This document shows, one piece after another, positions 5,786 to 54,828 of a DNA stretch of 64,000 bases. The position numbers and the translations under genes are program-made. The stretch's first letter is position 1, and every line of letters starts with the position of its first letter. The stretch comes from a virus: positions 32,001-96,000 of the IMG/VR virus record IMGVR_UViG_3300037423_000600; one strand, written 5' to 3'. Below the pieces are notes generated by a model, which had not been told where the DNA came from, did no database searches, and worked only from the letters and a program-made list of their open reading frames with translations.

Positions 5786-6022
5786 ATGAATTTGTCACTG
5801 GTGGTTCAACATTTGGTAGCACAAGAGAAGGCCAACGGCTCCGATATGGCGGCGGAGGCTTTAGGGAAATTGCTTGAGGAAACTTCGATTGTCTATTACG
5901 AGTACATGACCGAAGAAGAAATCGCCCAATACATTTTTGATGTCTACTTCGATGACCGCATCACTCATTTGCAGAATGGACTTAGCCGGACGGCGGGCGA
6001 GGTTACGATTGTCAGAAACTAA
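5786..6022 (+). CDS. hypothetical protein
   Basis: Promoter TATACT ~5732, RBS GGAGG, terminator 6028-6050. Confidence 0.75.
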   Translation: MNLSLVVQHLVAQEKANGSDMAAEALGKLLEETSIVYYEYMTEEEIAQYIFDVYFDDRITHLQNGLSRTAGEVTIVRN

Positions 6023-7048: not shown

Positions 7049-7394
7049 GGGCTTTTTTCTTACACCGAACCAAGTAATTTTCACGACACCTTTCCATAGA
7101 TTATACGCTCGGGGTATATTATAACTATCCCGGGAGGGCTTTACCAAAGGCTCTTATCGGGAACCTCCAATACATCGGCCCGGCAGGGATTCCCGACATT
7201 AACCGATTCGCGGTTACTGTACCCGCCGGGCCACAATTTTGTGCCAAATTCATAGACATCTAGTATCCCTCCCTTGCCCTCCGATTTTTGTATCCCCCAG
7301 AAGAAGCCCTAGTAGCTATACATGCCTCGTTCTCAAAAGATTTCACGAATGTAAAACTTTACAAGACTAAAGGATTCAAACCGTAAAACCTATA

Positions 7395-40974: not shown

Positions 40975-41169
40975 AACTGATGTCTATTACATCTTTTATG
41001 TGGTAGAATAGAGTCAAAGAATGCTCACACCAAGGCCCGAGACATCGATTTCTAAAGCTGTCTCGGGCTTTTATGTAGATATAGATGCTCAAGCATACCC
41101 GGCCGTGATATTGAATTTATCTTGAACTATATTTGTGAGGAGGATTCGTTATGTGAGGGAGTGATTGTC

Positions 41170-41598
41170 GTGCAGAAAACGGACTCTATTTATCAAATCA
41201 TCTTAGGTTCAGTATGGGCGTTATTTATTTATCTTGTTGGTGGAATCGACAAATTATTTATCGCCTGCACCATCTTGATTGTTCTGGACTACGTAACCGG
41301 GTTTCTCTCGGCATGGTACAGGAAAGAACTCATCAGCCGTACGGCATGGTTTGGCCTTTTGCGGAAAGGTCTGATGTTGGTTCCTATGATTGTGGCTAAT
41401 CAGGTGGACCTTATCTCTGGCATAGAGAACAGCCATTATGCCCGGAACGCCATGATGTTCTTTATTATCGCCACGGAAGGGACGAGCATATTTGAACACC
41501 TTGGAAAATTGGGGCTCAAGTATCCAAAATTCATTATTGAGTCTCTTACAAAACTCCGAGGCGATACGGGCCAGCGGCGGCGGAAAACTGACAGATAG
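41170..41598 (+). CDS. holin (phage holin 4 / toxin secretion family)
   Basis: LDYVTG, RK.L, E..SI.E.L..LG motifs, TM segments. Confidence 0.85.
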   Translation: MQKTDSIYQIILGSVWALFIYLVGGIDKLFIACTILIVLDYVTGFLSAWYRKELISRTAWFGLLRKGLMLVPMIVANQVDLISGIENSHYARNAMMFFIIATEGTSIFEHLGKLGLKYPKFIIESLTKLRGDTGQRRRKTDR

Positions 41599-41607
41599 GA
41601 GGGCTCT

Positions 41608-42468
41608 TTGATGCCTACAGCAATAAGACTCGGGATTGATTGCGGGACCGCACTTACGGCAATTACAGCACGAGCGTTTAAATCCCAAGGCTCTCAATTC
41701 GTTGGGAGGTATGTGAAGCCGAACTCTTGGAAGTCCTTAAAAGCGTCTGAGGTTCCGAATATTTTAGCGGAGGGGTTATGGATTCTTCCGGTATATGAAC
41801 GGACGGCAGACCGGACTAAAGGCGGGGCGGGCGCGGGAAAGGTAGACGGTAAAGAGGCATTTGATTACTGTGTCGCTTTAGGTATCCCTCAAGGCATAGC
41901 CGTTTACTTTGCGGTGGATTATGACGCGCCTACCTCGGAGTTTAATAACATCGAGGCTTATCTCCGGGCGGCGGCCGCCCAAATGACCGGGTACAAAATT
42001 GGAGTGTACGGCTCTTACTCGGTAGTTGAGGAAATGGCGGCCCGGGGCGCGGCGGAGTTCTTTTGGCAGACTCTCGCGTGGAGTAAAGGTAAAATCTCGG
42101 AACATGCGAATGTCTACCAAAAGCAAATCGACGTTACAGTAAATGGCATCGGCGTGGATTGGAACGACCAATTCAGCTATGCCGGGATGTGGGGCGAACC
42201 TATTCCCGCTCCAACTATCATCGTAGAAGAAAGGGATGACGACAATATGCCGATTCAAGCACCGGATTGGGTATGGGGACAAATGTACAATATCATTGGG
42301 GACGCGTATAACAAGGACCTTGTGGGTTGGGAGTGGTGTCAGAAGGTCCTCGACCGTACCATGACCTCTTGGGAGTATGCTCACATTTTGGCGGTGATTG
42401 AGTCCAAGAAAGCCGGACTTAACGTGGATGCAAAGAATGACGCTTGGAAAAAACCCGAGGAAAGGTAG
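41608..42468 (+). CDS. endolysin, DUF1906/GH25-like glycoside hydrolase
   Basis: G.D, FVGRY, YFAVDYD, GVYGS, WQT.AWS motifs; lies between two holins. Confidence 0.85.
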   Translation: MMPTAIRLGIDCGTALTAITARAFKSQGSQFVGRYVKPNSWKSLKASEVPNILAEGLWILPVYERTADRTKGGAGAGKVDGKEAFDYCVALGIPQGIAVYFAVDYDAPTSEFNNIEAYLRAAAAQMTGYKIGVYGSYSVVEEMAARGAAEFFWQTLAWSKGKISEHANVYQKQIDVTVNGIGVDWNDQFSYAGMWGEPIPAPTIIVEERDDDNMPIQAPDWVWGQMYNIIGDAYNKDLVGWEWCQKVLDRTMTSWEYAHILAVIESKKAGLNVDAKNDAWKKPEER

Positions 42469-43019: not shown

Positions 43020-43496
43020 ATGCCGGACTTCGACTTTAGGATTGTAGACCGATTGCAGGAGTATGACAAGGACATCAAGTTTGAACAATTACGTTATCAT
43101 CGTAAACGGGTAATGGTGTCTAAAGAGTTTACTTTCGACTCCGCCCACCATTTACACGCTTATGAAGGGAAGTGTAAAAACCTCCACGGTCACACCTATA
43201 AGGTGGTCTTTGGGATATCCGCTACCACGGATTCTATCGGTTTGGCGGTGGATTTTGGGGATATTAAGGAACTATGGAAATCCCAAATCGAACCCTATTT
43301 GGACCATCGTTACCTGAACGAAACCCTTCCGCCGATGAATACCACAGCGGAAAACATGGTCTACTGGATTTTCGAGCAGATGGAAAACGCCCTTAAGACC
43401 TCCAATATCAACGGTACTCGTCAACCCCGTGTGGAGTTCGTTCGGTTGTTTGAAACCCCAACATCTTACGCCGAATTTCGGCGGGAATGGTTATAA
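43020..43496 (+). CDS. queD: 6-carboxy-5,6,7,8-tetrahydropterin synthase
   Basis: KEFTFDSAHHL, C.NLHGHTY, DFG.IK, LDHRYLN, TTAEN, L.ETPTS. Confidence 0.93.
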   Translation: MPDFDFRIVDRLQEYDKDIKFEQLRYHRKRVMVSKEFTFDSAHHLHAYEGKCKNLHGHTYKVVFGISATTDSIGLAVDFGDIKELWKSQIEPYLDHRYLNETLPPMNTTAENMVYWIFEQMENALKTSNINGTRQPRVEFVRLFETPTSYAEFRREWL

Positions 43497-45135: not shown

Positions 45136-45215
45136 CTACTTAAGATTCTAAAGGAGCGGGTACTTAAGAAACTTAAGGAACAAAATACATATATTAAATA
45201 AAATAAAAACATTGT
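45136..45215. repeat. ~80 bp element, copy 2
   Basis: Closely similar to 16643-16721. Confidence 0.85.
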
Positions 45216-45232
45216 GGAAGGACGTGCTAAAG

Positions 45233-45646
45233 GTGAATTATCGACAGCATATGACGTTCGGCTTGGCTTTAGGGGCGGGGATTCAGTACATAGGACATAT
45301 CGGTTCTACGAACCTTTTCTCTATACCGTCATACTATGCAGGAGTGGCTTTAGGTTCTCTACTCCCGGATATCGACCATCCTCAATCGTTTCTCGGCCGC
45401 CGGATACCCATAATCCCGCAACTCATCTACGACGTATGGGGCCACAGGTCAATTACTCATTCCTTACTGGCCTTAACCACGCTAGGTATCGCTACGGCTT
45501 CGACACTACACTTTTCTCCTTACCTTCTCCTCGGGAATTTTATCGGGTATCTCTCACATTTACTCGGGGATATGCTGACCAAATCGGGCATCCCTTTATT
45601 TTGGCCGATAGAAAAGAAAAGGTACCGAATCGTCGCCATATTCTAA
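45233..45646 (+). CDS. membrane-bound metal-dependent hydrolase (YdjM/DUF457-like)
   Basis: GSLLPDIDHP.S, HRSITHS, GY.SHL.GD..T..G.P.FWP. Confidence 0.88.
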   Translation: MNYRQHMTFGLALGAGIQYIGHIGSTNLFSIPSYYAGVALGSLLPDIDHPQSFLGRRIPIIPQLIYDVWGHRSITHSLLALTTLGIATASTLHFSPYLLLGNFIGYLSHLLGDMLTKSGIPLFWPIEKKRYRIVAIF

Positions 45647-45829
45647 TTCCGGGAATACTGTAACCTAAGAGGCATACCATACCCAACCGCAGTTCGGCTG
45701 TTCCTCCGGGCCGATGCCGGAGTAGGTTGGGTATGCTTCTTCTATTTTGTAGGAAAGGAGGCATATGCGGGAATGGATGGACATAGTAATGGTAATAATG
45801 GTAGGACAATGAACGGGAGGGAAGATAAG

Positions 45830-46009: not shown

Positions 46010-46017
46010 TCTTTACT

Positions 46018-46162
46018 TGTGCGAGAAACCACCCAAGGCGGCAAACTTTAACAGGTGAGTTACTTCCGTTTATCGATGTGCCGAGAGTGCGCTAACACTA
46101 CGAAGCAGATAGGACCTACTGGCTATGCCCTAGGGCGTACGGCGGTAGGTTCTTTTCTTTTT
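46018..46162 (+). ncRNA. putative small RNA 1
   Basis: TTGACA-N17-TAATCT promoter at 45984-46012; long terminator hairpin 46104-46162; no ORF. Confidence 0.55.
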
Positions 46163-46185
46163 CCGCCGGGTATGGTATTATTTAC

Positions 46186-46302
46186 ATTGTCTCGTCATTG
46201 TTGGCGAGGAGAAATGAGATAGTATTGGCGTACTTCTAATTTTTCCTTGTCACGTTCCCGGAAAGCCTTTGACTGTATTGCCTAAACAGTCAAGGGGTTT
46301 TT
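46186..46302 (+). ncRNA. putative small RNA 2
   Basis: TGGTATTAT -10; 5' hairpin; terminator CCTTTGACTGT...ACAGTCAAGGGG plus T tract. Confidence 0.5.
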
Positions 46303-46334
46303 GCTTTTTTCCGGCGGCTATGGTAAGATGGTTT

Positions 46335-46520
46335 TACCTTAGTTCGTTGGCCGCCGGGATTGAAGAGTTCCGGCCGTATCCATCGAATACGTGTAGCTGG
46401 TGGGCTCTACGTGGTTATAAAGGTCAAAGGTTGTGCGCCTTGTTAAAACCATTGCCAATGGAACAGCCTTTATAAAGAAAACCCCTTTTCGCGTTCCACG
46501 CGGGGAGGGGTTTTTCTTTG
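46335..46520 (+). ncRNA. putative small RNA 3 (multi-branched)
   Basis: TTGCTT-N17-TAAGAT promoter; several hairpins; terminator AAACCCC...GGGGTTT. Confidence 0.55.
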
Positions 46521-46625
46521 CCTTTCGAGGGAGTAACCCCATAGTGTTATTCTTCGCCTGCCGGGTTATACTATAGATGTCGGGTTAGGAGCCCGGCAAA
46601 TCCTTTAGCGAAGGGCGGGAGACGG

Positions 46626-46971: not shown

Positions 46972-47166
46972 ATGGCGAAAAACCAAAAAGCAGTTCCTAC
47001 TCAACAGGTGAATCAGGTATTGGACCAAATGAAATATGAAATTGCCAGTGAACTTGGCATCCAAACAGGGGCAGACCAAACGGCCCGTAATAACGGTCGT
47101 GTCGGCGGGCAGATGACAAAAAGGCTGATTCAAATTGCTGAATCTACTATCGCTGGCGGCCGATAA
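46972..47166 (+). CDS. alpha/beta-type small acid-soluble spore protein (SASP)
   Basis: LDQMKYEIASELG and T.R.NG.VGG.MTKRL..IAE signatures. Confidence 0.92.
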   Translation: MAKNQKAVPTQQVNQVLDQMKYEIASELGIQTGADQTARNNGRVGGQMTKRLIQIAESTIAGGR

Positions 47167-47372
47167 TGGATGGAGAAAGTCTTTTGATGACAGGTATTTC
47201 CGTAATGTATGGGTTGTTTTTACTCGGAGCTATTTTCTTTATAGGTCGAACTTAAATGGTTAAATCCTTTCAAGATTATAGAAAAGAAAAATACCGTGGA
47301 TTCTGGCAATCATTTTGGGTCATTGTACTCCTTATTCTTTCCTTCCTCTTCTTTGCTTCTGAGGCCCCGTAA
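47166..47372 (+). CDS. two consecutive small membrane peptides (29 aa at 47166-47255; 38 aa at 47256-47372)
   Basis: Hand translation; each has one TM stretch; terminator follows. Confidence 0.4.
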
Positions 47373-47410
47373 AAGGGGTCTTTTTCTTTTTAAAAATTTT
47401 CGGCGGGGAC

Positions 47411-47442
47411 ACGCACCAAAATAGGCTCCGGCCCATACCTTA
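47411..47442 (+). promoter_or_regulatory. sigmaK-like sporulation promoter 1
   Basis: ACGCAC-N17-CATA-CCT-TA. Confidence 0.65.
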
Positions 47443-47472
47443 TTTACATAACGTTAACGGGGAGTGAAATCC

Positions 47473-47598
47473 ATGACGATTGGTGACGCTTTGCTGTGGA
47501 TAGCCAGCGCGTATATTTCGTGGAAATTCATCAAGGGAACGTGCAACATCGTTTCCACTATGGCGGAAGTCGGGCTCGAAAAGCTACGGCGGCTGTAA
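47473..47598 (+). CDS. 41 aa membrane peptide
   Basis: RBS GGGGAG; MTIGDALLWIASAYISWKFIKG... Confidence 0.55.
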   Translation: MTIGDALLWIASAYISWKFIKGTCNIVSTMAEVGLEKLRRL

Positions 47599-47620
47599 CG
47601 GGCGGGAGGAGGAAAGAACG

Positions 47621-47815
47621 ATGACGGAAACCCAAAAAGCAACACTGGAGAAAAGCTTAGAGACAGCTACCAAGGCGGTGAAGAAAATCCAAGATGAACT
47701 CAAGGCTTTAGAAATTCCCTTAACTCAACTCACGGTAAGAAAGACCGCTTTATGCATTGACCTCTTGGAGGCGGAAGTTCTGGAACTCAAAGAAGCATTT
47801 AACGCACGGCGATAA
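47621..47815 (+). CDS. coiled-coil hypothetical protein
   Basis: RBS GGAGGAGG. Confidence 0.7.
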   Translation: MTETQKATLEKSLETATKAVKKIQDELKALEIPLTQLTVRKTALCIDLLEAEVLELKEAFNARR

Positions 47816-47833
47816 CAATGGGAGCATACCCTA
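47802..47833 (+). promoter_or_regulatory. sigmaK-like sporulation promoter 2
   Basis: ACGCAC-N17-CATA-CCC-TA. Confidence 0.65.
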
Positions 47834-47905
47834 TTATCATCAGCGGCCCCAAGCCGCACTTAGTCACCGGGATGATAATAGGGTATGGGACAGGGAGGTA
47901 GGAAG

Positions 47906-48121
47906 ATGATAACTGCATCAATAGGAACGGCTTTTTATATCGGCGGCGTGGGTATCATTGGGGCCTTAATTAGTTTGGTGGTTAAGGCTATGGGAAATCC
48001 GGCATTAGCTACTCTCATCGACACGGTGGCTTTGATTGCTATTTTATTCGCGGCCGGGTCCGTATTTATGGAGTTCTTTGATTATCTTCGACATATCGGT
48101 TACGAGTATAATGTACTCTGA
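47906..48121 (+). CDS. SpoIIIAC/AD-like two-TM membrane protein
   Basis: F.IGGVGII.A....V.K..G....A..I......I.........F pattern resembles SpoIIIAC/AD. Confidence 0.55.
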   Translation: MITASIGTAFYIGGVGIIGALISLVVKAMGNPALATLIDTVALIAILFAAGSVFMEFFDYLRHIGYEYNVL

Positions 48122-48153
48122 TTTTTGTTCCCCACAATAGGGAGGGTTGTATC

Positions 48154-49554
48154 ATGGTTCTAGGGGCTACCGCTATCGCGGCGGTTGCAGGCAAGTTGAT
48201 TCTAAAAGGTGCGCTCGATATGGCGGGTATGTCGTTGATGGCTGGAGCGGGTGCAGGTATATGGAAGATGTCCCGCCGCCCGCCGGAGGTTGTTCAAGTG
48301 TTGATGCATGGTGGAGTGTATCCGGTGGGATTGAAGAAGTCCCCGGTGACGTTCTATGAGCGGGATACGGTGACGGATACAGATGGAAAGCAACACGAAA
48401 TCTTTACTTACAAGATGGAGATTCCTTTAGGGAAATCGCTGGCGGATTTTAAGACCCGGCTCCCGGCCCTTGAGGATAAGTTTAATTGCGAAGTCAAGAT
48501 GTGGCTGGAGAACGGGTTGGCCTGCATGAAGATGATTATGAAACCCCTCCCGGACAGATTGGAGTTTAATGAATCGATGTACGAAGCCCTCCGGAAACAC
48601 GAGTGCGGGGTTATCCTTGGGGACAGCCGGAACGGGCTCCGTATCATCGACCTTGCCAAACCTTCCACCTTTAGTATGCTTATCGGCGGGGTGGCGGGCG
48701 GAGGAAAAAGTAATCTCCTGAATGTAATCATATGTGGGACGGCGTGTGCTTATGCGCCGTGGGATGTTCAATTTTACCTTGTGGATATGAAGGATGGTGT
48801 TGAATTTGCTCCTTACGAAAATCTACCCCATGTTCAGTCAATCATTGACGACCGAGGGAATCGTAAACGTATTATCGACAACGTGGACGATTGTTCAAGT
48901 ATGCTCCGAAGTCTTGCTGATGCCATCCGCATCCGAAACCAGCTTTTTAAGAGTGCCGGAGTACGAAACATTAGCGAGTATCGGGGCCTTGGCTATGAAC
49001 TCCCGCATATCATTGTCATCGCAGACGAATTTGCAGACTTCGGAACCCTTGACACCCAGAAACGAAATAAGCTGTTTACCGAGTGGGGATTCCTTACACG
49101 TAAAGGCCGGAGCGCGGGGATACACTGTATCATTTGTACCCAAATCGCTGATGCCGATTCGGTCCCTCGCCAGCTAAAGGGGAACCTGCCTGTAAAGGTC
49201 GGCTTTAGGATGACCAAGCGGGAGAACTCCGAAACCATTTTTGATTCGGATGTCGCTATCCACATCCCGCCGATTCCCGGCCGGGCCGTTCTTAAAATTG
49301 GCGACTACGAAAATATTCAAGTACCTCTACTGGAAACCCAGACGATTGAGGAAAAGATTATTCCTCAACTGGAACCCTATAACGAGATTATGGAAGAGAG
49401 GGAGGCGGAATTACTTGCGGAAGAATCGGACGATGAACAACTACCGGAGGATGCCTTTATCGAATCTCAACAGGTGGAGCCCGAGCCGGAACCGGAACCC
49501 GCACCCAAAAAACGGGGCCGGAGCAAAGCCAACCCGGATATAATCGCTACTTAA
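48154..49554 (+). CDS. FtsK/SpoIIIE-family DNA translocase ATPase
   Basis: GVAGGGKS, D.K.GVEF, VIADEFAD, RKGRSAGIH....TQ, PGRA motifs. Confidence 0.92.
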   Translation: MVLGATAIAAVAGKLILKGALDMAGMSLMAGAGAGIWKMSRRPPEVVQVLMHGGVYPVGLKKSPVTFYERDTVTDTDGKQHEIFTYKMEIPLGKSLADFKTRLPALEDKFNCEVKMWLENGLACMKMIMKPLPDRLEFNESMYEALRKHECGVILGDSRNGLRIIDLAKPSTFSMLIGGVAGGGKSNLLNVIICGTACAYAPWDVQFYLVDMKDGVEFAPYENLPHVQSIIDDRGNRKRIIDNVDDCSSMLRSLADAIRIRNQLFKSAGVRNISEYRGLGYELPHIIVIADEFADFGTLDTQKRNKLFTEWGFLTRKGRSAGIHCIICTQIADADSVPRQLKGNLPVKVGFRMTKRENSETIFDSDVAIHIPPIPGRAVLKIGDYENIQVPLLETQTIEEKIIPQLEPYNEIMEEREAELLAEESDDEQLPEDAFIESQQVEPEPEPEPAPKKRGRSKANPDIIAT

Positions 49555-49777
49555 TCCCCGCGCTTCCTTAATATATAAGGGACGGCAAAACAAAAACCCC
49601 GCCGGATGGCGGGGCCAATTAAGAATCTCTGGGGAGAATCAAGAAGTTCATTGGGCTTCAAAGAAAATATTGGAACTCATGTTAAAAGTATATACAAGAG
49701 TTATAAGTATTATACCACTTGTCTAAAATTATTTGAACCTTCTTATTAAATTCTAATAAATCAGGGAGGAATTACCT

Positions 49778-50781: not shown

Positions 50782-50964
50782 GTGAAAGATTGGTACAAGA
50801 AGAGTGGAGCAACTGTGGTATATCAAACCCCGGACGGTACGCTAAAGGCTCAAGTTTGTAAAGACGATGGCGTAGCTTGGGAGTTATATGACCAATTCCA
50901 AAAGGCAGGCTGTAACCCAGTCATTTTCCTAAATGAAAATGGATTACACGAAAGGAGAAAATAA
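50782..50964 (+). CDS. hypothetical protein
   Basis: RBS GGAGGAGG. Confidence 0.6.
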   Translation: MKDWYKKSGATVVYQTPDGTLKAQVCKDDGVAWELYDQFQKAGCNPVIFLNENGLHERRK

Positions 50965-50965
50965 G

Positions 50966-52801
50966 ATGATGCAAACAGTTGAAGTAAAAAGTAACATTGG
51001 CGGCAGGCTTAAGAAAATCCGCGAAGGCGTGGTGTTCAATTCGGTTACATCTGTCATTGGGGAACTCGGGCAGAACGCCCAACGCGCTCTCAATGCGGCG
51101 GTGGCGGCCGGGAAGAATCCGGATGAAGCTTCTATCTTCCTTGAGTTTTCTCCCGATAAGAAAACCTTTATGGTATCGGATAACGGAATTGGTTGCTCCA
51201 ATCCTCAGGACATTTTGGAACTCGACGTGTCGGGTTTTGGGGTGGGTTTCGGGGAGGGCTTTAGTTCGGTATTCCTTATCGCAGACCGGATTATCATTAA
51301 CTCGAACGATTGGTATATGGATATTGACGTTATCAAGATGATGGAAAATGCGGACTACGAGGTTCAGGTTCACAAGTCGGATGTGGTTAAAGATGGAGGG
51401 TTTACTGTTATCCTTTCCGGTCAGAAGATTGAAGAACATCACGATGAATTACTTCGATTTACGGAAGAAATGGCTTCCCTGCTTCCCTACCCGACTCTTC
51501 TGAACGGTGCTTATGTGAAGAAGAAAGACCTCTCCGACCTTGGCCGCCGGGTCCCGTATAAAATGGATGTCGATAACGAGTTCTTCTCCGGGACTTTAGG
51601 AGCCAACAATAGCTGGGACGATGTTCAGGTGTACTATGAGAACCGCTATGTGTGTGCAATCTGGAAATCTGGCCTGTGCGGAAACATCATGCTAAAGCCT
51701 GGCGCTGTCAATCTCAAAGCCCCGGACCGCCGGGAAATCATTTACGATGCCAAGCGCACCGCTCTTATGGAGAAGCTTCAGGAATGCGGTAAAGTCTTAT
51801 ACCAAGGCTTCCTCGAACATGATTCCGATAAGGCCCTCACCGAGTACGCCGAGAAGGTCGAAGCTTTCCTCTCGGTGGATGAGTATATTCCCTTTCTTGA
51901 AATGGATGTAGCCGGACTCGACTTTGCTAAAATGATGGAGGAGAAACATAAGCCGCATACCGACGAGCAACTTCTCGAAGCGGCCGGACTAGATACTCCG
52001 CATCAGGAACACTTCGGAGGCAGTTCTCGCACAGTTGGCGGCTCCAAACTCAAGATTGACGGCGGGGATGCCGCAGAAATTGGAACGGCGGAGCCTCGTT
52101 TTGAGAAATCTCGTAAGGAATCCGAGAAGCTTACTAAGGCCAAGACCAAGAAACGCCAGAAGAACTACGGCAAGTTCATTGAGAAGCTGAACAAGATGAA
52201 GGCTCAATTTAAAGTAGTCTGGGCGACCCTGAATGAAATTGATACTTACGAGCCTCAACTCAAAGAACTCAAGGGCTACGGGTTTACGGTACTTACCGCG
52301 AAGAGTAAACTGTACGAATCGGCCTTTAGGCATTTGGATATCCTGCACTTCCAAGAAGTCGAATCCAATGTACAAATTAAGTATTCGTTTAACAACATCG
52401 GCGCGGCGGACGGTAAAGAATCTCGCGTCCTGTGGCTTCTTGAGCGTATTGAAGAAATCCTCAAGACCCCCAACCTTTTTCGGATATGTGATATCGAATG
52501 CCAAGTAGAACATTTCCGGAATAACCAGCTTGTGGCTACGGAAACCCGCGTCTGTCGCTATCGTTATGACAAAGCTTCCGACCGGATTTACATTGACCGC
52601 AAGCATCTGGAACTCCCGTCCTATCGAGTGGAGAAATGGAATGACGGCAAGATTAACTTGAATGACCTCCGGCTGATGCTTAAGAATTTGGAATTTATCG
52701 CGCAGGAGGTCACGAAGTTCAAGAAGAAATCGCATGAAGTCGCTGAGGGCTTCTGGGAATCTAAAGATGCCGTCCTCCGGGAATTGGCGGAGTTATTCTG
52801 A
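50966..52801 (+). CDS. GHKL (Hsp90/MutL-like) ATPase domain protein
   Basis: ELGQNAQRA (N box), VSDNGIG (G1), GFGVGFGEGF (G2). Confidence 0.8.
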   Translation: MMQTVEVKSNIGGRLKKIREGVVFNSVTSVIGELGQNAQRALNAAVAAGKNPDEASIFLEFSPDKKTFMVSDNGIGCSNPQDILELDVSGFGVGFGEGFSSVFLIADRIIINSNDWYMDIDVIKMMENADYEVQVHKSDVVKDGGFTVILSGQKIEEHHDELLRFTEEMASLLPYPTLLNGAYVKKKDLSDLGRRVPYKMDVDNEFFSGTLGANNSWDDVQVYYENRYVCAIWKSGLCGNIMLKPGAVNLKAPDRREIIYDAKRTALMEKLQECGKVLYQGFLEHDSDKALTEYAEKVEAFLSVDEYIPFLEMDVAGLDFAKMMEEKHKPHTDEQLLEAAGLDTPHQEHFGGSSRTVGGSKLKIDGGDAAEIGTAEPRFEKSRKESEKLTKAKTKKRQKNYGKFIEKLNKMKAQFKVVWATLNEIDTYEPQLKELKGYGFTVLTAKSKLYESAFRHLDILHFQEVESNVQIKYSFNNIGAADGKESRVLWLLERIEEILKTPNLFRICDIECQVEHFRNNQLVATETRVCRYRYDKASDRIYIDRKHLELPSYRVEKWNDGKINLNDLRLMLKNLEFIAQEVTKFKKKSHEVAEGFWESKDAVLRELAELF

Positions 52802-53151: not shown

Positions 53152-53275
53152 AAGTTTTTCATCCCACCCCTTCCCGGGTTTACTCGATACCCGGAAGGGG
53201 TTATAATACTTATAACAGGTCAAACGGTCCCGGCCGGGCGGCCAGTTACATAAAATCAAAGGAGAAGTGATAAGA

Positions 53276-54355
53276 ATGAGTAACATCGTATTCGGCCGAT
53301 TCGGTCAAGGAAGCACAGCGGCGGCAGTCAGCCCCAAGAACGGTCCTAAATTGGGAGATATTTTCGCGGAACTCCTCAAGGATTCCGAGAACAAGAAAGA
53401 CCATATCATCGACCCCTACCAAGTCAAGATGGGCGGCAACGGCCGTATTTATCTTCCCGGTATGGATAACTCTAACTCGCTCGGTTTTGAACTTAACGAT
53501 TGGTCTTTAGGCCAGCTTGCAGGTAAGACAGAAATCCCCGTCAGATATCTTCGCAAGAGCCCGCCGGAACTTCAAGCGGTCAACGTGAACTACTGGCTCC
53601 GGAATATGACCGATGAGAGTAAGGCGGACTGGATGTTCCGCGTACGTCAGGCAGACATTCAGGATATCCGCAAAGGCGGGCTGGTTCGCGGCATCATGAC
53701 CGAGAAATACTCCCCGTTCGATGACCATGAGATTATGGAAATCATCAATAAGATTCTTGGGGTCAAAGATGATTCGTATACGGTCAACTGGTTCTACCGT
53801 GACGAAACCGGGTTCCATCTTCGTGTCACCTTCGAGGATTTGACCCGGCAGATTGGTCTTACCCGCGACGGCCGCCCAGACTTCCACAAAATCGGCCTTC
53901 ATATCACGAACTCCGAAGTTGGGAAACGGTCCATCCGTATCGTGCCGATGGTATGGCGGCTCGTATGCACGAACGGCCTGATGGGATGGCGGACGGAAGA
54001 TGCCTTTAGCCAACGGCACGTAGGACTTCGCCCGCAGGAAATGTATACCCGTGTGGCGGAGGCCATCGGCAACGGCTTGAAGCTGGGGAAGGAAATGGTG
54101 GATACACTGGTGGCGGCTAAAGAGTTCGAGATTCCGGACCCGTTCGCAGTCATCGACCAACTCTCCAAGGATTTGAAATATTCCGAAGCTTTGACGGAGA
54201 AGATTAAAGAATCTTGGTTGGAAGATGCACAATCTTCCGTGTTCGGAGTGGTTCAATCTCTTACCCGGGCCGCCCAGCATTTCGAGGCTGACCGCCGCGT
54301 AGAGATTGAGGAAGATGCCGGGAAGTACCTTCGGAAGATGATTACTGCGGTATAA
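53276..54355 (+). CDS. DUF932-family protein
   Basis: NSEVG..S..I.P...RLVCTNG motif. Confidence 0.8.
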   Translation: MSNIVFGRFGQGSTAAAVSPKNGPKLGDIFAELLKDSENKKDHIIDPYQVKMGGNGRIYLPGMDNSNSLGFELNDWSLGQLAGKTEIPVRYLRKSPPELQAVNVNYWLRNMTDESKADWMFRVRQADIQDIRKGGLVRGIMTEKYSPFDDHEIMEIINKILGVKDDSYTVNWFYRDETGFHLRVTFEDLTRQIGLTRDGRPDFHKIGLHITNSEVGKRSIRIVPMVWRLVCTNGLMGWRTEDAFSQRHVGLRPQEMYTRVAEAIGNGLKLGKEMVDTLVAAKEFEIPDPFAVIDQLSKDLKYSEALTEKIKESWLEDAQSSVFGVVQSLTRAAQHFEADRRVEIEEDAGKYLRKMITAV

Positions 54356-54417: not shown

Positions 54418-54828
54418 ATGAGTTATCAAAGTATGCTTACTCTTATCGACAAAAAAGAAACGGAATTACTGGCTCAACTGCATACCGTTCGGGAAATGCG
54501 TAAGCTTGTTCTTCAAGAAAGTACGTCCGATTTGAAAGAACACTTTTTTCAGTTGTACCTTACTAATATCGAGGCTTATTGTAATTGGACCAAGGTTAAA
54601 GACCCTATTTCCGGCGAGGAATCGGCTCCCGATGAAACCTTGATGCGCGGTATCGAAACCTTGGCGGCTATTTCCGATGTCGCAAAGAAAGCTTTCCGGG
54701 AGGAAATTCTTATCCGGATTAGTTCCTACACCCGGAAGCAAAAACAATTTACCTCCGAAAGTCACGAACGGTTGAGTGAGGCTTTAGATAAATACGTCAA
54801 AAAGCACATAGAAAATACCTTACCTTAA
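54418..54828 (+). CDS. stand-alone PrkA C-terminal domain fragment
   Basis: YL.N.EAYCN..K..DP..GEE..PDE.LMR.IE....IS..AKKAFREEILIRIS.Y.RK matches recalled Bacillus PrkA C-terminus. Confidence 0.8.
   Translation: MSYQSMLTLIDKKETELLAQLHTVREMRKLVLQESTSDLKEHFFQLYLTNIEAYCNWTKVKDPISGEESAPDETLMRGIETLAAISDVAKKAFREEILIRISSYTRKQKQFTSESHERLSEALDKYVKKHIENTLP

Follow-up and report, generated by a model that had tools for sequence, protein, structure and literature searches.

Genes for FtsK/SpoIIIE-like proteins have been catalogued in phages for about twenty years, and their function is still unknown. GenBank lists them in 400 phage records, of which 273 belong to Bacillus phages, and one cassette that contains them, the "DNA translocation operon" of 0305phi8-36, SPO1 and the Gamma group, has been described with a relaxase, an ATPase and membrane anchors (Pathria et al. 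2012, PMC3357382). A review mentions the speculation that phage FtsK-like genes affect sporulation (PMC4113786), and surveys of phage-borne sporulation genes list spoIIIE and no spoIIIA genes. In bacteria, the SpoIIIA proteins form a mother-cell membrane complex together with SpoIIQ of the forespore; SpoIIIAC is a mother-cell membrane protein, and the complex is required for forespore integrity and late gene expression (PMC2703783). Here we describe an operon in 64,000 nucleotides of phage DNA (bases 32001-96000 of the IMG/VR virus record IMGVR_UViG_3300037423_000600; hereafter the window), in which a SpoIIIAC homologue and an FtsK/SpoIIIE-family ATPase are encoded side by side behind two promoter-like sites of the SigK type. 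An earlier inspection of the letters alone (the sequence-only reading) had proposed a spore-entry system at this place and had treated phage FtsK genes as known, which the GenBank records and the 2012 description bear out. Our results suggest a sporulation-phase membrane module that is expressed in the mother cell, and hence a phage that may act on DNA while its host makes a spore.

The protein encoded at 47906..48121 on the plus strand has 71 residues and two transmembrane (TM) helices and scores 35.6 bits against PF06686 (cut-off 24), aligning to positions 3-54 of the 56-position model. When it was compared with 1.8 billion representative proteins, only two small full-length relatives were returned, P0004 and P0005, and each passes the Pfam SpoIIIAC cut-off independently (29.8 and 41.8 bits). 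The counterpart in L005, an IMG/VR relative of the window phage, scores 28.3 bits, and that in L009, a metagenome contig, falls just under the cut-off at 21.9 bits. The profile-profile comparison, run as hhalign, aligned a profile of five phage proteins with 12 bacterial SpoIIIAC sequences end to end over 62 columns (97.8%, E 6.7e-13); on the same scale, the phage set reached 54.9% against SpoIIIAD and SpoIIIAC reached 93.2% against SpoIIIAD. The nearest ESM Atlas clusters are likewise SpoIIIAC (score 0.91). Thus, the proposal of a SpoIIIAC/AD-like protein at this position holds by family model, profile alignment and ESM Atlas cluster. The 71-residue protein scores below the cut-off of the SpoIIIAC equivalog model TIGR02848 (26.5 versus 56.65 bits), and its gene lies outside any spoIIIAA-AH operon, with a coiled-coil gene and the FtsK-like gene as neighbors. 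For these two reasons, we interpret it as a divergent homologue of SpoIIIAC and not as an orthologue. Of 61 genomes sampled from the phylum of a Lachnoclostridium metagenome-assembled genome (G001), 52 yielded a match to the family, and among the matches listed for these genomes, each sits in a single cluster of AC plus a two-domain AD. A full-text literature search for SpoIIIAC together with phage returned no title or abstract opening that concerned a phage-encoded SpoIIIAC.

The module has few relatives. Scans of IMG/VR with single proteins found nothing, alignment scans returned L005 as the sole close relative, and a scan of metagenomes added L009, its other matches being distant FtsK genes only. 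A scan of genome contigs, for which the SpoIIIAC-like proteins proved too variable as a query, returned no prophage relatives, and megablast and tblastn searches of GenBank phages gave no close genome and no SpoIIIAC-like match. In L005, the FtsK-like protein is 59% identical to that of the window, and the order QueD, YdjM, small acid-soluble spore protein (SASP), operon and large downstream protein is syntenic. L009, 1.2 kb long and of lower GC content, covers the last part of the coiled-coil gene, the intergenic element and the SpoIIIAC-like gene, together with the start of an FtsK-like gene (34% identical). P0004 comes from an 88-kb contig, and P0010 is an FtsK-like protein 59% identical to the window ATPase; the two probably lie on that one contig, which would make a fourth genome. 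The SpoIIIAC-like gene adjoins the FtsK-like gene in all three phages. The coiled-coil gene (47621..47815, plus strand), whose helical product of 64 residues belongs to no Pfam or PHROG family, is conserved with 48% identity in L005 and 34% in L009, so its inclusion in the module by the sequence-only reading was justified. The same reading had placed a "TM peptide" behind the first promoter, and this part does not stand: the open reading frame (ORF) of 41 codons at 47473..47598 (plus strand) has a ribosome-binding site, but its product is only weakly hydrophobic (best 15-residue window 1.39), matches no family and has no counterpart in L005, where unrelated ORFs occupy its place. It is a doubtful part of the module. 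Since the coiled-coil gene, the intergenic element, the SpoIIIAC-like gene and the FtsK-like gene are kept in L005 and L009 and the 41-codon ORF is not kept in L005, we take these four parts as the conserved core.

Two promoter-like sites with the same architecture lie on the plus strand of the operon, as had been noted before. P1 (47411..47442) reads ACGCAC-N17-CATACC-T-TA, with ACGCAC at 47411-16, CATACC at 47434-39 and TA at 47441-42; P2 (47802..47833) reads ACGCAC-N17-CATACC-C-TA, with its parts at 47802-07, 47825-30 and 47832-33, and overlaps the last codons of the coiled-coil gene. The two share 14 specified positions and are the sole zero-mismatch matches to this pattern in the window. 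A search of both strands of the 105-kb genome for AC-N16/17-CATAnnnTA likewise gave these two sites and no others. SigE and SigK promoters have a common -10 element, and position 4 of the -35 element is C for SigK and T for SigE; the recognition residues of these sigma factors are conserved across endospore formers (Eichenberger et al. 2004, PMC517825). We therefore scored as SigK-type a -35 element that ends in AC and has C at position 4, a spacer of about 17 nt and a -10 element CATAnnnTA (PMC517825). All five sites in the three phages follow this rule: P1 (ACGCAC-N17-CATACCTTA) and P2 (ACGCAC-N17-CATACCCTA) of the window, P1 (ACGCAC-N17-CATAACTTA; CATAAC-T-TA) and P2 (AAGCAC-N17-CATACCTTA; CATACC-T-TA) of L005, and P2 of the short contig L009 (GGCAAC-N16-CATATCATA). 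The motif is thus kept at both places in L005 and at the second place in L009, and the assignment to a SigK-type architecture, with the SigK-distinguishing C in the -35 element, gains from this conservation. Between the window and L005, the P2 spacer is largely different, and both boxes and the spacer length are kept; the P2 -35 element is retained even though the overlapping C-terminal codons encode different residues. Upstream of P1, an intrinsic terminator (47361..47382, plus strand; an 8-pair stem followed by a T run) closes the preceding unit of the SASP and a small peptide, and L005 has the same hairpin and T run, with its P1 at the same place behind them.

We looked for a phage-encoded sigma factor, as had been advised, and found no Sigma70 r2, r4 or r4_2 domain in the phage genome at E≤1. 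Because the genome has no detectable Sigma70 domain, a host sigma factor is the simplest reader of P1 and P2, although a very divergent phage factor may also serve. We put sporulation-specific expression of the operon at slightly better than an even chance. By eye, P1 and P2 did not fit the SigB, extracytoplasmic-function or sigma-54 consensus. Two further candidates were set aside. A CATATATTA box upstream of the YdjM gene stands N17 from an AC in L005 and N15 in the window and was not counted as a SigK site, and a SigG/SigF-type promoter before the SASP unit (GTATA-N18-TATACTA in L005) has a -35 element that, by eye, is not kept in the window. The stricter form GCAC-N17-CATAnnnTA occurs twice in the genome, where 0.2 are expected. 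As a separate observation, CATAnnnTA is scarce on the plus strand of the whole genome (11 versus about 26 expected); together with the low count of the loose SigK consensus, given below, this scarcity could reflect avoidance of mother-cell promoter-like sequences.

The -10 box of P2 has a second property, which the sequence-only reading had not recorded. The box lies in the 5′ arm of a perfect inverted repeat of 17 bp (47825-41 and 47871-87), which makes the outer stem of a conserved stem-loop with an inner GC hairpin (47825..47887, plus strand). Equivalent stems of 17 bp and about 15 bp are present in L005 and L009. The window stem folds as RNA at -32.9 kcal/mol (z -4.1), and those of L005 and L009 have z scores of -5.4 and -5.2. 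At stem positions 5, 7 and 10-14, both sides change across the three phages with pairing kept; positions 15-17 show paired changes between the window and L005 only, and in L009, position 15 is a T-G wobble and position 16 is unpaired. No change is seen in the three phages at positions 1-4, 6, 8 and 9, and CATAnnnTA accounts for all of these but position 6, which is C. An invariant CATAnnnTA within a co-varying stem therefore indicates a sequence that is constrained twice, as a stem and as a -10 element of the SigK/SigE type. A transcript from P1 would hold the whole stem, and one that starts just after the P2 -10 box would lose the 5′ arm. Leaders that start at P2 have no significant structure (fold z about 0), and a switch that masks the ribosome-binding site is therefore unsupported. 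The stem might act as a processing or stability element on read-through RNA, as a barrier between two units or as an element at the DNA level. A second long hairpin directly follows the YdjM gene (window 45673-45735; L005 about 5823-5887). It starts with CATAC, ends with GTATG, precedes a T-rich tract and has no SigK-type -35 element; its outer stem co-varies between the window and L005, and its interior is highly conserved.

The last gene of the operon (48154..49554, plus strand) encodes an FtsK/SpoIIIE-family ATPase of 466 residues (PF01580, 90.2 bits; phrog_1358, E 3e-65, a family annotated as "FtsK/SpoIIIE-like"). It has one motor domain, with Walker A and B motifs that can be read in the translation (GGVAGGGKS and IIVIADEF). 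The proposed FtsK ATPase with a hydrophobic N-terminus is correct as to family; the N-terminus itself is Gly/Ala-rich and just moderately hydrophobic (1.73), with no clear multi-span anchor. Neither the gamma domain PF09397 nor the 4TM N-terminal domain PF13491 was found in the protein at E≤0.1, and both are present in bacterial FtsK matches. Among solved structures, the best score belongs to EccC-type type VII ATPases, and the widest query coverage (residues 84-384) to 6o1w, a TcpA-type "DNA translocase coupling protein". The substrate is probably DNA, by analogy with these motors. At its C-terminus (window 49480-49554), the ATPase carries an acidic segment and an EP repeat together with a basic, AT-hook-like tail, KKRGRSK, which the 59%-identical relatives lack. 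A GC-rich hairpin behind the gene (49595..49616; a 9-pair stem with a T run on the minus strand only) is the probable end of the operon unit. A defense-system reading was considered and dropped, as PADLOC gave just generic FtsK-domain matches (SspH, mad8).

The phage that carries this module is probably virulent. Its record of 105,101 bp has a 127-bp direct terminal repeat and is rated complete, its GC content is about 50%, and almost all its long ORFs are on the plus strand. No integrase, tyrosine or serine recombinase, resolvase or ParB was found in the phage genome, and there is therefore no evident lysogenic route into spores. Also not found in the genome were a SpoIIID gene and, at E≤0.1, the relaxase-like Replic_Relax domain (PF13814). 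The region 5′ of the operon holds structural genes, a papain-like peptidase, an NlpC/P60 protein, a holin (41122-41598), an endolysin (41608-42468) and, after these lysis genes, QueD, a 6-pyruvoyl-tetrahydropterin synthase (43020-43496); at about 58.8-60.4 kb of the window lie a replication-protein-O-like gene and an IstB/DnaC-like (IstB_IS21 family) ATPase gene. Given this flanking content, the operon occupies an accessory region between lysis and replication genes. The best clue to the host is a stand-alone gene of 136 codons (54418-54828) for a fragment of the PrkA C-terminal domain (PF06798, 87.6 bits), a second host-derived, sporulation-associated piece in this phage. Its top full-length matches are nearly all Paenibacillus PrkA (64-69% identity), which fits a soil phage of about 50% GC, and the host is probably a Paenibacillus-like endospore former.

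Together, these results suggest the following model. The operon would be a conserved accessory unit of a probably virulent phage that infects Paenibacillus-like endospore formers, laid out as P1, a variable small ORF, the coiled-coil protein, P2 over the stem-loop, the SpoIIIAC homologue and a gamma-less, presumably membrane-associated FtsK/TcpA-like ATPase. Because its promoters are of the SigK type and the phage has no sigma factor that we could detect, the operon is most likely silent in growing cells and would be turned on during sporulation, when host RNA polymerase transcribes it in the mother cell. The SpoIIIAC homologue would then bring the ATPase to the mother-cell membrane that surrounds the forespore, at the SpoIIIA-SpoIIQ complex or instead of it, where the motor would handle DNA. 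The likeliest purpose would be that the phage genome travels with the spore and escapes loss with the dying mother cell. The spore-related genes that co-occur in this phage, the alpha/beta-type SASP and the PrkA fragment, count in favor of the model. We infer from sequence the sigma dependence, location, substrate and direction of transport in this account, and to the full explanation, in which the module acts at the forespore membrane and carries phage DNA with the spore, we give somewhat less than an even chance.

SigK becomes active after engulfment, when two membranes enclose the forespore and the job of SpoIIIE is done. For this reason, SpoIIIE-like pumping across a septum is the wrong picture, and a role at the outer forespore membrane, such as docking on the SpoIIIA-SpoIIQ (A-Q) complex, tethering of the genome or interference with the complex, is possible instead. 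In its most specific form, the model would make a captured SpoIIIAC and a conjugation-type DNA motor under SigK control into a dedicated phage spore-loading machine. The phage genome in the mother cell could then be threaded through the SpoIIIA-SpoIIQ complex, or tethered at it, and survive in or on the spore. We regard this version as unlikely.

A number of considerations weigh against the model. DNA loading fits poorly with the post-engulfment timing of SigK and with two membranes to cross. By NCBIfam score, the motor is no closer to FtsK than to type VII protein-secretion ATPases, and it has neither a gamma domain nor any other recognizable DNA-targeting domain; its substrate therefore need not be DNA. 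Matches to the loose SigK consensus are no more frequent in the genome than in shuffles (2 seen versus 6.1 +/- 2.6), and the case for promoters is one of conservation across just three phages. Nine of the ten other GenBank phage FtsK loci that we inspected lack a SigK-type site upstream, the exception being c-st, so SigK wiring of phage FtsK loci is not general. The only sequencing run listed for the phage DNA is a soil DNA metagenome run, which may be its source, and the listing has no RNA run. Finally, deletion of the related operon in 0305phi8-36 gave no laboratory phenotype (PMC3357382), and the FtsK-like gene of phage Fah is reported to be a delayed gene of ordinary vegetative infection (PMC4113786).

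In an alternative account, the operon would be an ordinary phage FtsK cassette that works in normal infection (for instance, in replication, genome handling or the exclusion of other DNA), with a SigK resemblance that is coincidental or due to an unrecognized phage factor, and with the SpoIIIAC-like protein as a membrane anchor. The abundance of FtsK-like genes in phages, those of Bacillus above all, and the membrane anchors of the cassette described in 2012 speak for such a view, as does the delayed vegetative expression in Fah, and SP-15 and LIS04 likewise have a small two-TM gene directly upstream. However, the invariant positions in the three phages take in every consensus position of the SigK -10 and -35 elements, and the genome holds just two such sites, which is not what a general class of phage promoters would leave. 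A strong terminator stands upstream of P1, the anchor is homologous to SpoIIIAC specifically, which that of SP-15 is not, and the Replic_Relax partner was not found. We consider this alternative rather doubtful, though it deserves weight. The motif and stem-loop might instead be cis elements and not promoters, either a processing or stability hairpin within a longer RNA or DNA sites that the ATPase recognizes, in the manner of plasmid clt or oriT. Compensatory changes at 7 of the first 14 stem positions with full pairing, fold z scores of -4 to -5 and the second co-varying hairpin that starts with CATAC after YdjM, which has no -35 partner, are what such elements would show. Yet P1 has the same -35 element, spacer length and -10 element without a hairpin, pairing alone would not fix CATA and TA, and the ATPase has no recognizable sequence-reading domain. 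Moreover, a real stem may overlap a promoter, so the two are compatible. We think it very unlikely that cis elements are the whole explanation.

A further alternative keeps the timing of the model and reverses the purpose. A SpoIIIAC mimic, possibly with help from the ATPase, would disable the SpoIIIA-SpoIIQ complex, so that forespore development stalls and the mother cell stays available for phage production, or sporulation would be cut short. The promoter and homology evidence serves both purposes equally, the need for the SpoIIIA complex in forespore integrity and late gene expression (PMC2703783) makes it a plausible target, and a divergent paralogue (22-42 bits versus 31-77 for host proteins) could be a poison subunit. 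This explanation leaves the constant partner, an ATPase of the DNA-translocase type, unaccounted for, and since the complex is at work from the SigE stage on, SigK timing would, by textbook accounts, come late for a block. The adjacent SASP gene also suggests the use of spore biology rather than its blockade, and we judge such a sabotage to be improbable.

Several neighbors of the operon deserve mention. The alpha/beta-type SASP of the preceding unit (46972..47166, plus strand; 64 residues) scores 67.8 bits against PF00269, above the cut-off, and the conserved L005 copy scores likewise 67.8 bits. The YdjM-like protein (45212-45646; 144 residues) scores 115 bits against PF04307. The sequence-only reading had cast these two as accessories of the operon; both families are confirmed, and the link is positional only, with the genes in separate units 5′ of the terminator. 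Upstream of the YdjM gene, tandem TACTTAAGA..CT.AAGGA repeats (window 45137-45200) are kept in L005 and are followed by CATATATTA. Between YdjM and the SASP, about 600 nt (46010-46620) contain no credible ORF and several terminator-like hairpins (for example, 46477-46515). This region is about 300 nt longer in the window than in L005 and may hold small RNA genes; Rfam and tRNA scans of the window were empty. Downstream of the operon, a large conserved protein (window 50933-52801, 622 residues; L005 10287-12128, 613 residues) has N-terminal motifs that look, by eye, like those of GHKL-type ATPases and has no Pfam or PADLOC match; a DUF932 protein (53267-54355) follows it.

The persistence of non-integrating phages through host sporulation has been detailed for a few models only. 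The module described here would provide a concrete link, with a defined promoter type, the A-Q complex as a candidate docking site and a two-gene core suited to expression in model spore-formers. If its promoters depend on SigK, a probably lytic phage would carry genes kept for use in the mother cell of its sporulating host, and the stem on the -10 box would be a compact case of a promoter and a structured element that share bases.

Of the known systems, the operon of Pathria et al. resembles the module as a non-essential cassette with an FtsK/TraG-like ATPase and separate small membrane proteins in phages that infect Bacillus-type hosts (0305phi8-36, SPO1 and Gamma/Wbeta/Fah), and in several phages it follows the lysis genes, as in the window. 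In contrast, its defining relaxase-like Replic_Relax gene was not found in the window phage, although the domain is present or annotated beside the FtsK-like gene in the Geobacillus and Bacillus siphophages that we checked. As published, that operon has no SpoIIIAC homologue and no SigK-type promoter, and the words "sporulation" and "spore" do not occur in the paper (PMC3357382). The closest GenBank FtsK-like proteins (32% and 29% identity) are those of the Thornevirus phages SP-15 and LIS04 (SP15_160-161), where an 87-residue two-TM protein is encoded directly upstream of the FtsK-like gene. This protein has no detectable relation to the SpoIIIAC-like set (hhalign 0.6%; no PF06686 match), however, and no SigK motif lies upstream. 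TcpA-type coupling proteins (PDB 6o1w-6o1z) and SpoIIIE/FtsK share with the phage ATPase an FtsK-family motor behind an N-terminal hydrophobic segment, whereas the phage has no conjugation apparatus, relaxase, gamma domain or 4TM FtsK N-terminal domain. Bacterial SpoIIIAC, part of the spoIIIA operon and the A-Q complex, agrees with the phage protein in family, size and two-helix layout and differs in gene context, the phage gene being the partner of an FtsK-like ATPase gene and no member of a spoIIIAA-AH operon.

In Clostridium botulinum phage c-st (CST192-CST197), a small TM protein is encoded ahead of an FtsK-like gene, and an AC-N17-CATAGTATA site stands a short way upstream of CST192-193. 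Nearby lies the gene for a 62-residue protein with weak similarity to the SpoIIIAC-like set (hhalign 62%, E 7.6e-5), although no small protein of c-st reaches the Pfam SpoIIIAC model. Unlike the window phage, c-st is a phage-plasmid; it has a tubulin-type partition system, a ParB-like gene and a weak Replic_Relax match (16.4 bits, under the cut-off). In c-st (L056), matches to the SigK consensus on the plus strand lie at three places (7298-7325, 10052 and 11663), all in intergenic gaps of the CST192-198 cluster; some could be chance matches in an AT-rich genome. Thus, to an FtsK cassette that has been known in phages since 2012, the locus described here adds a SpoIIIAC partner and SigK-type wiring, a combination new to the literature that we searched.

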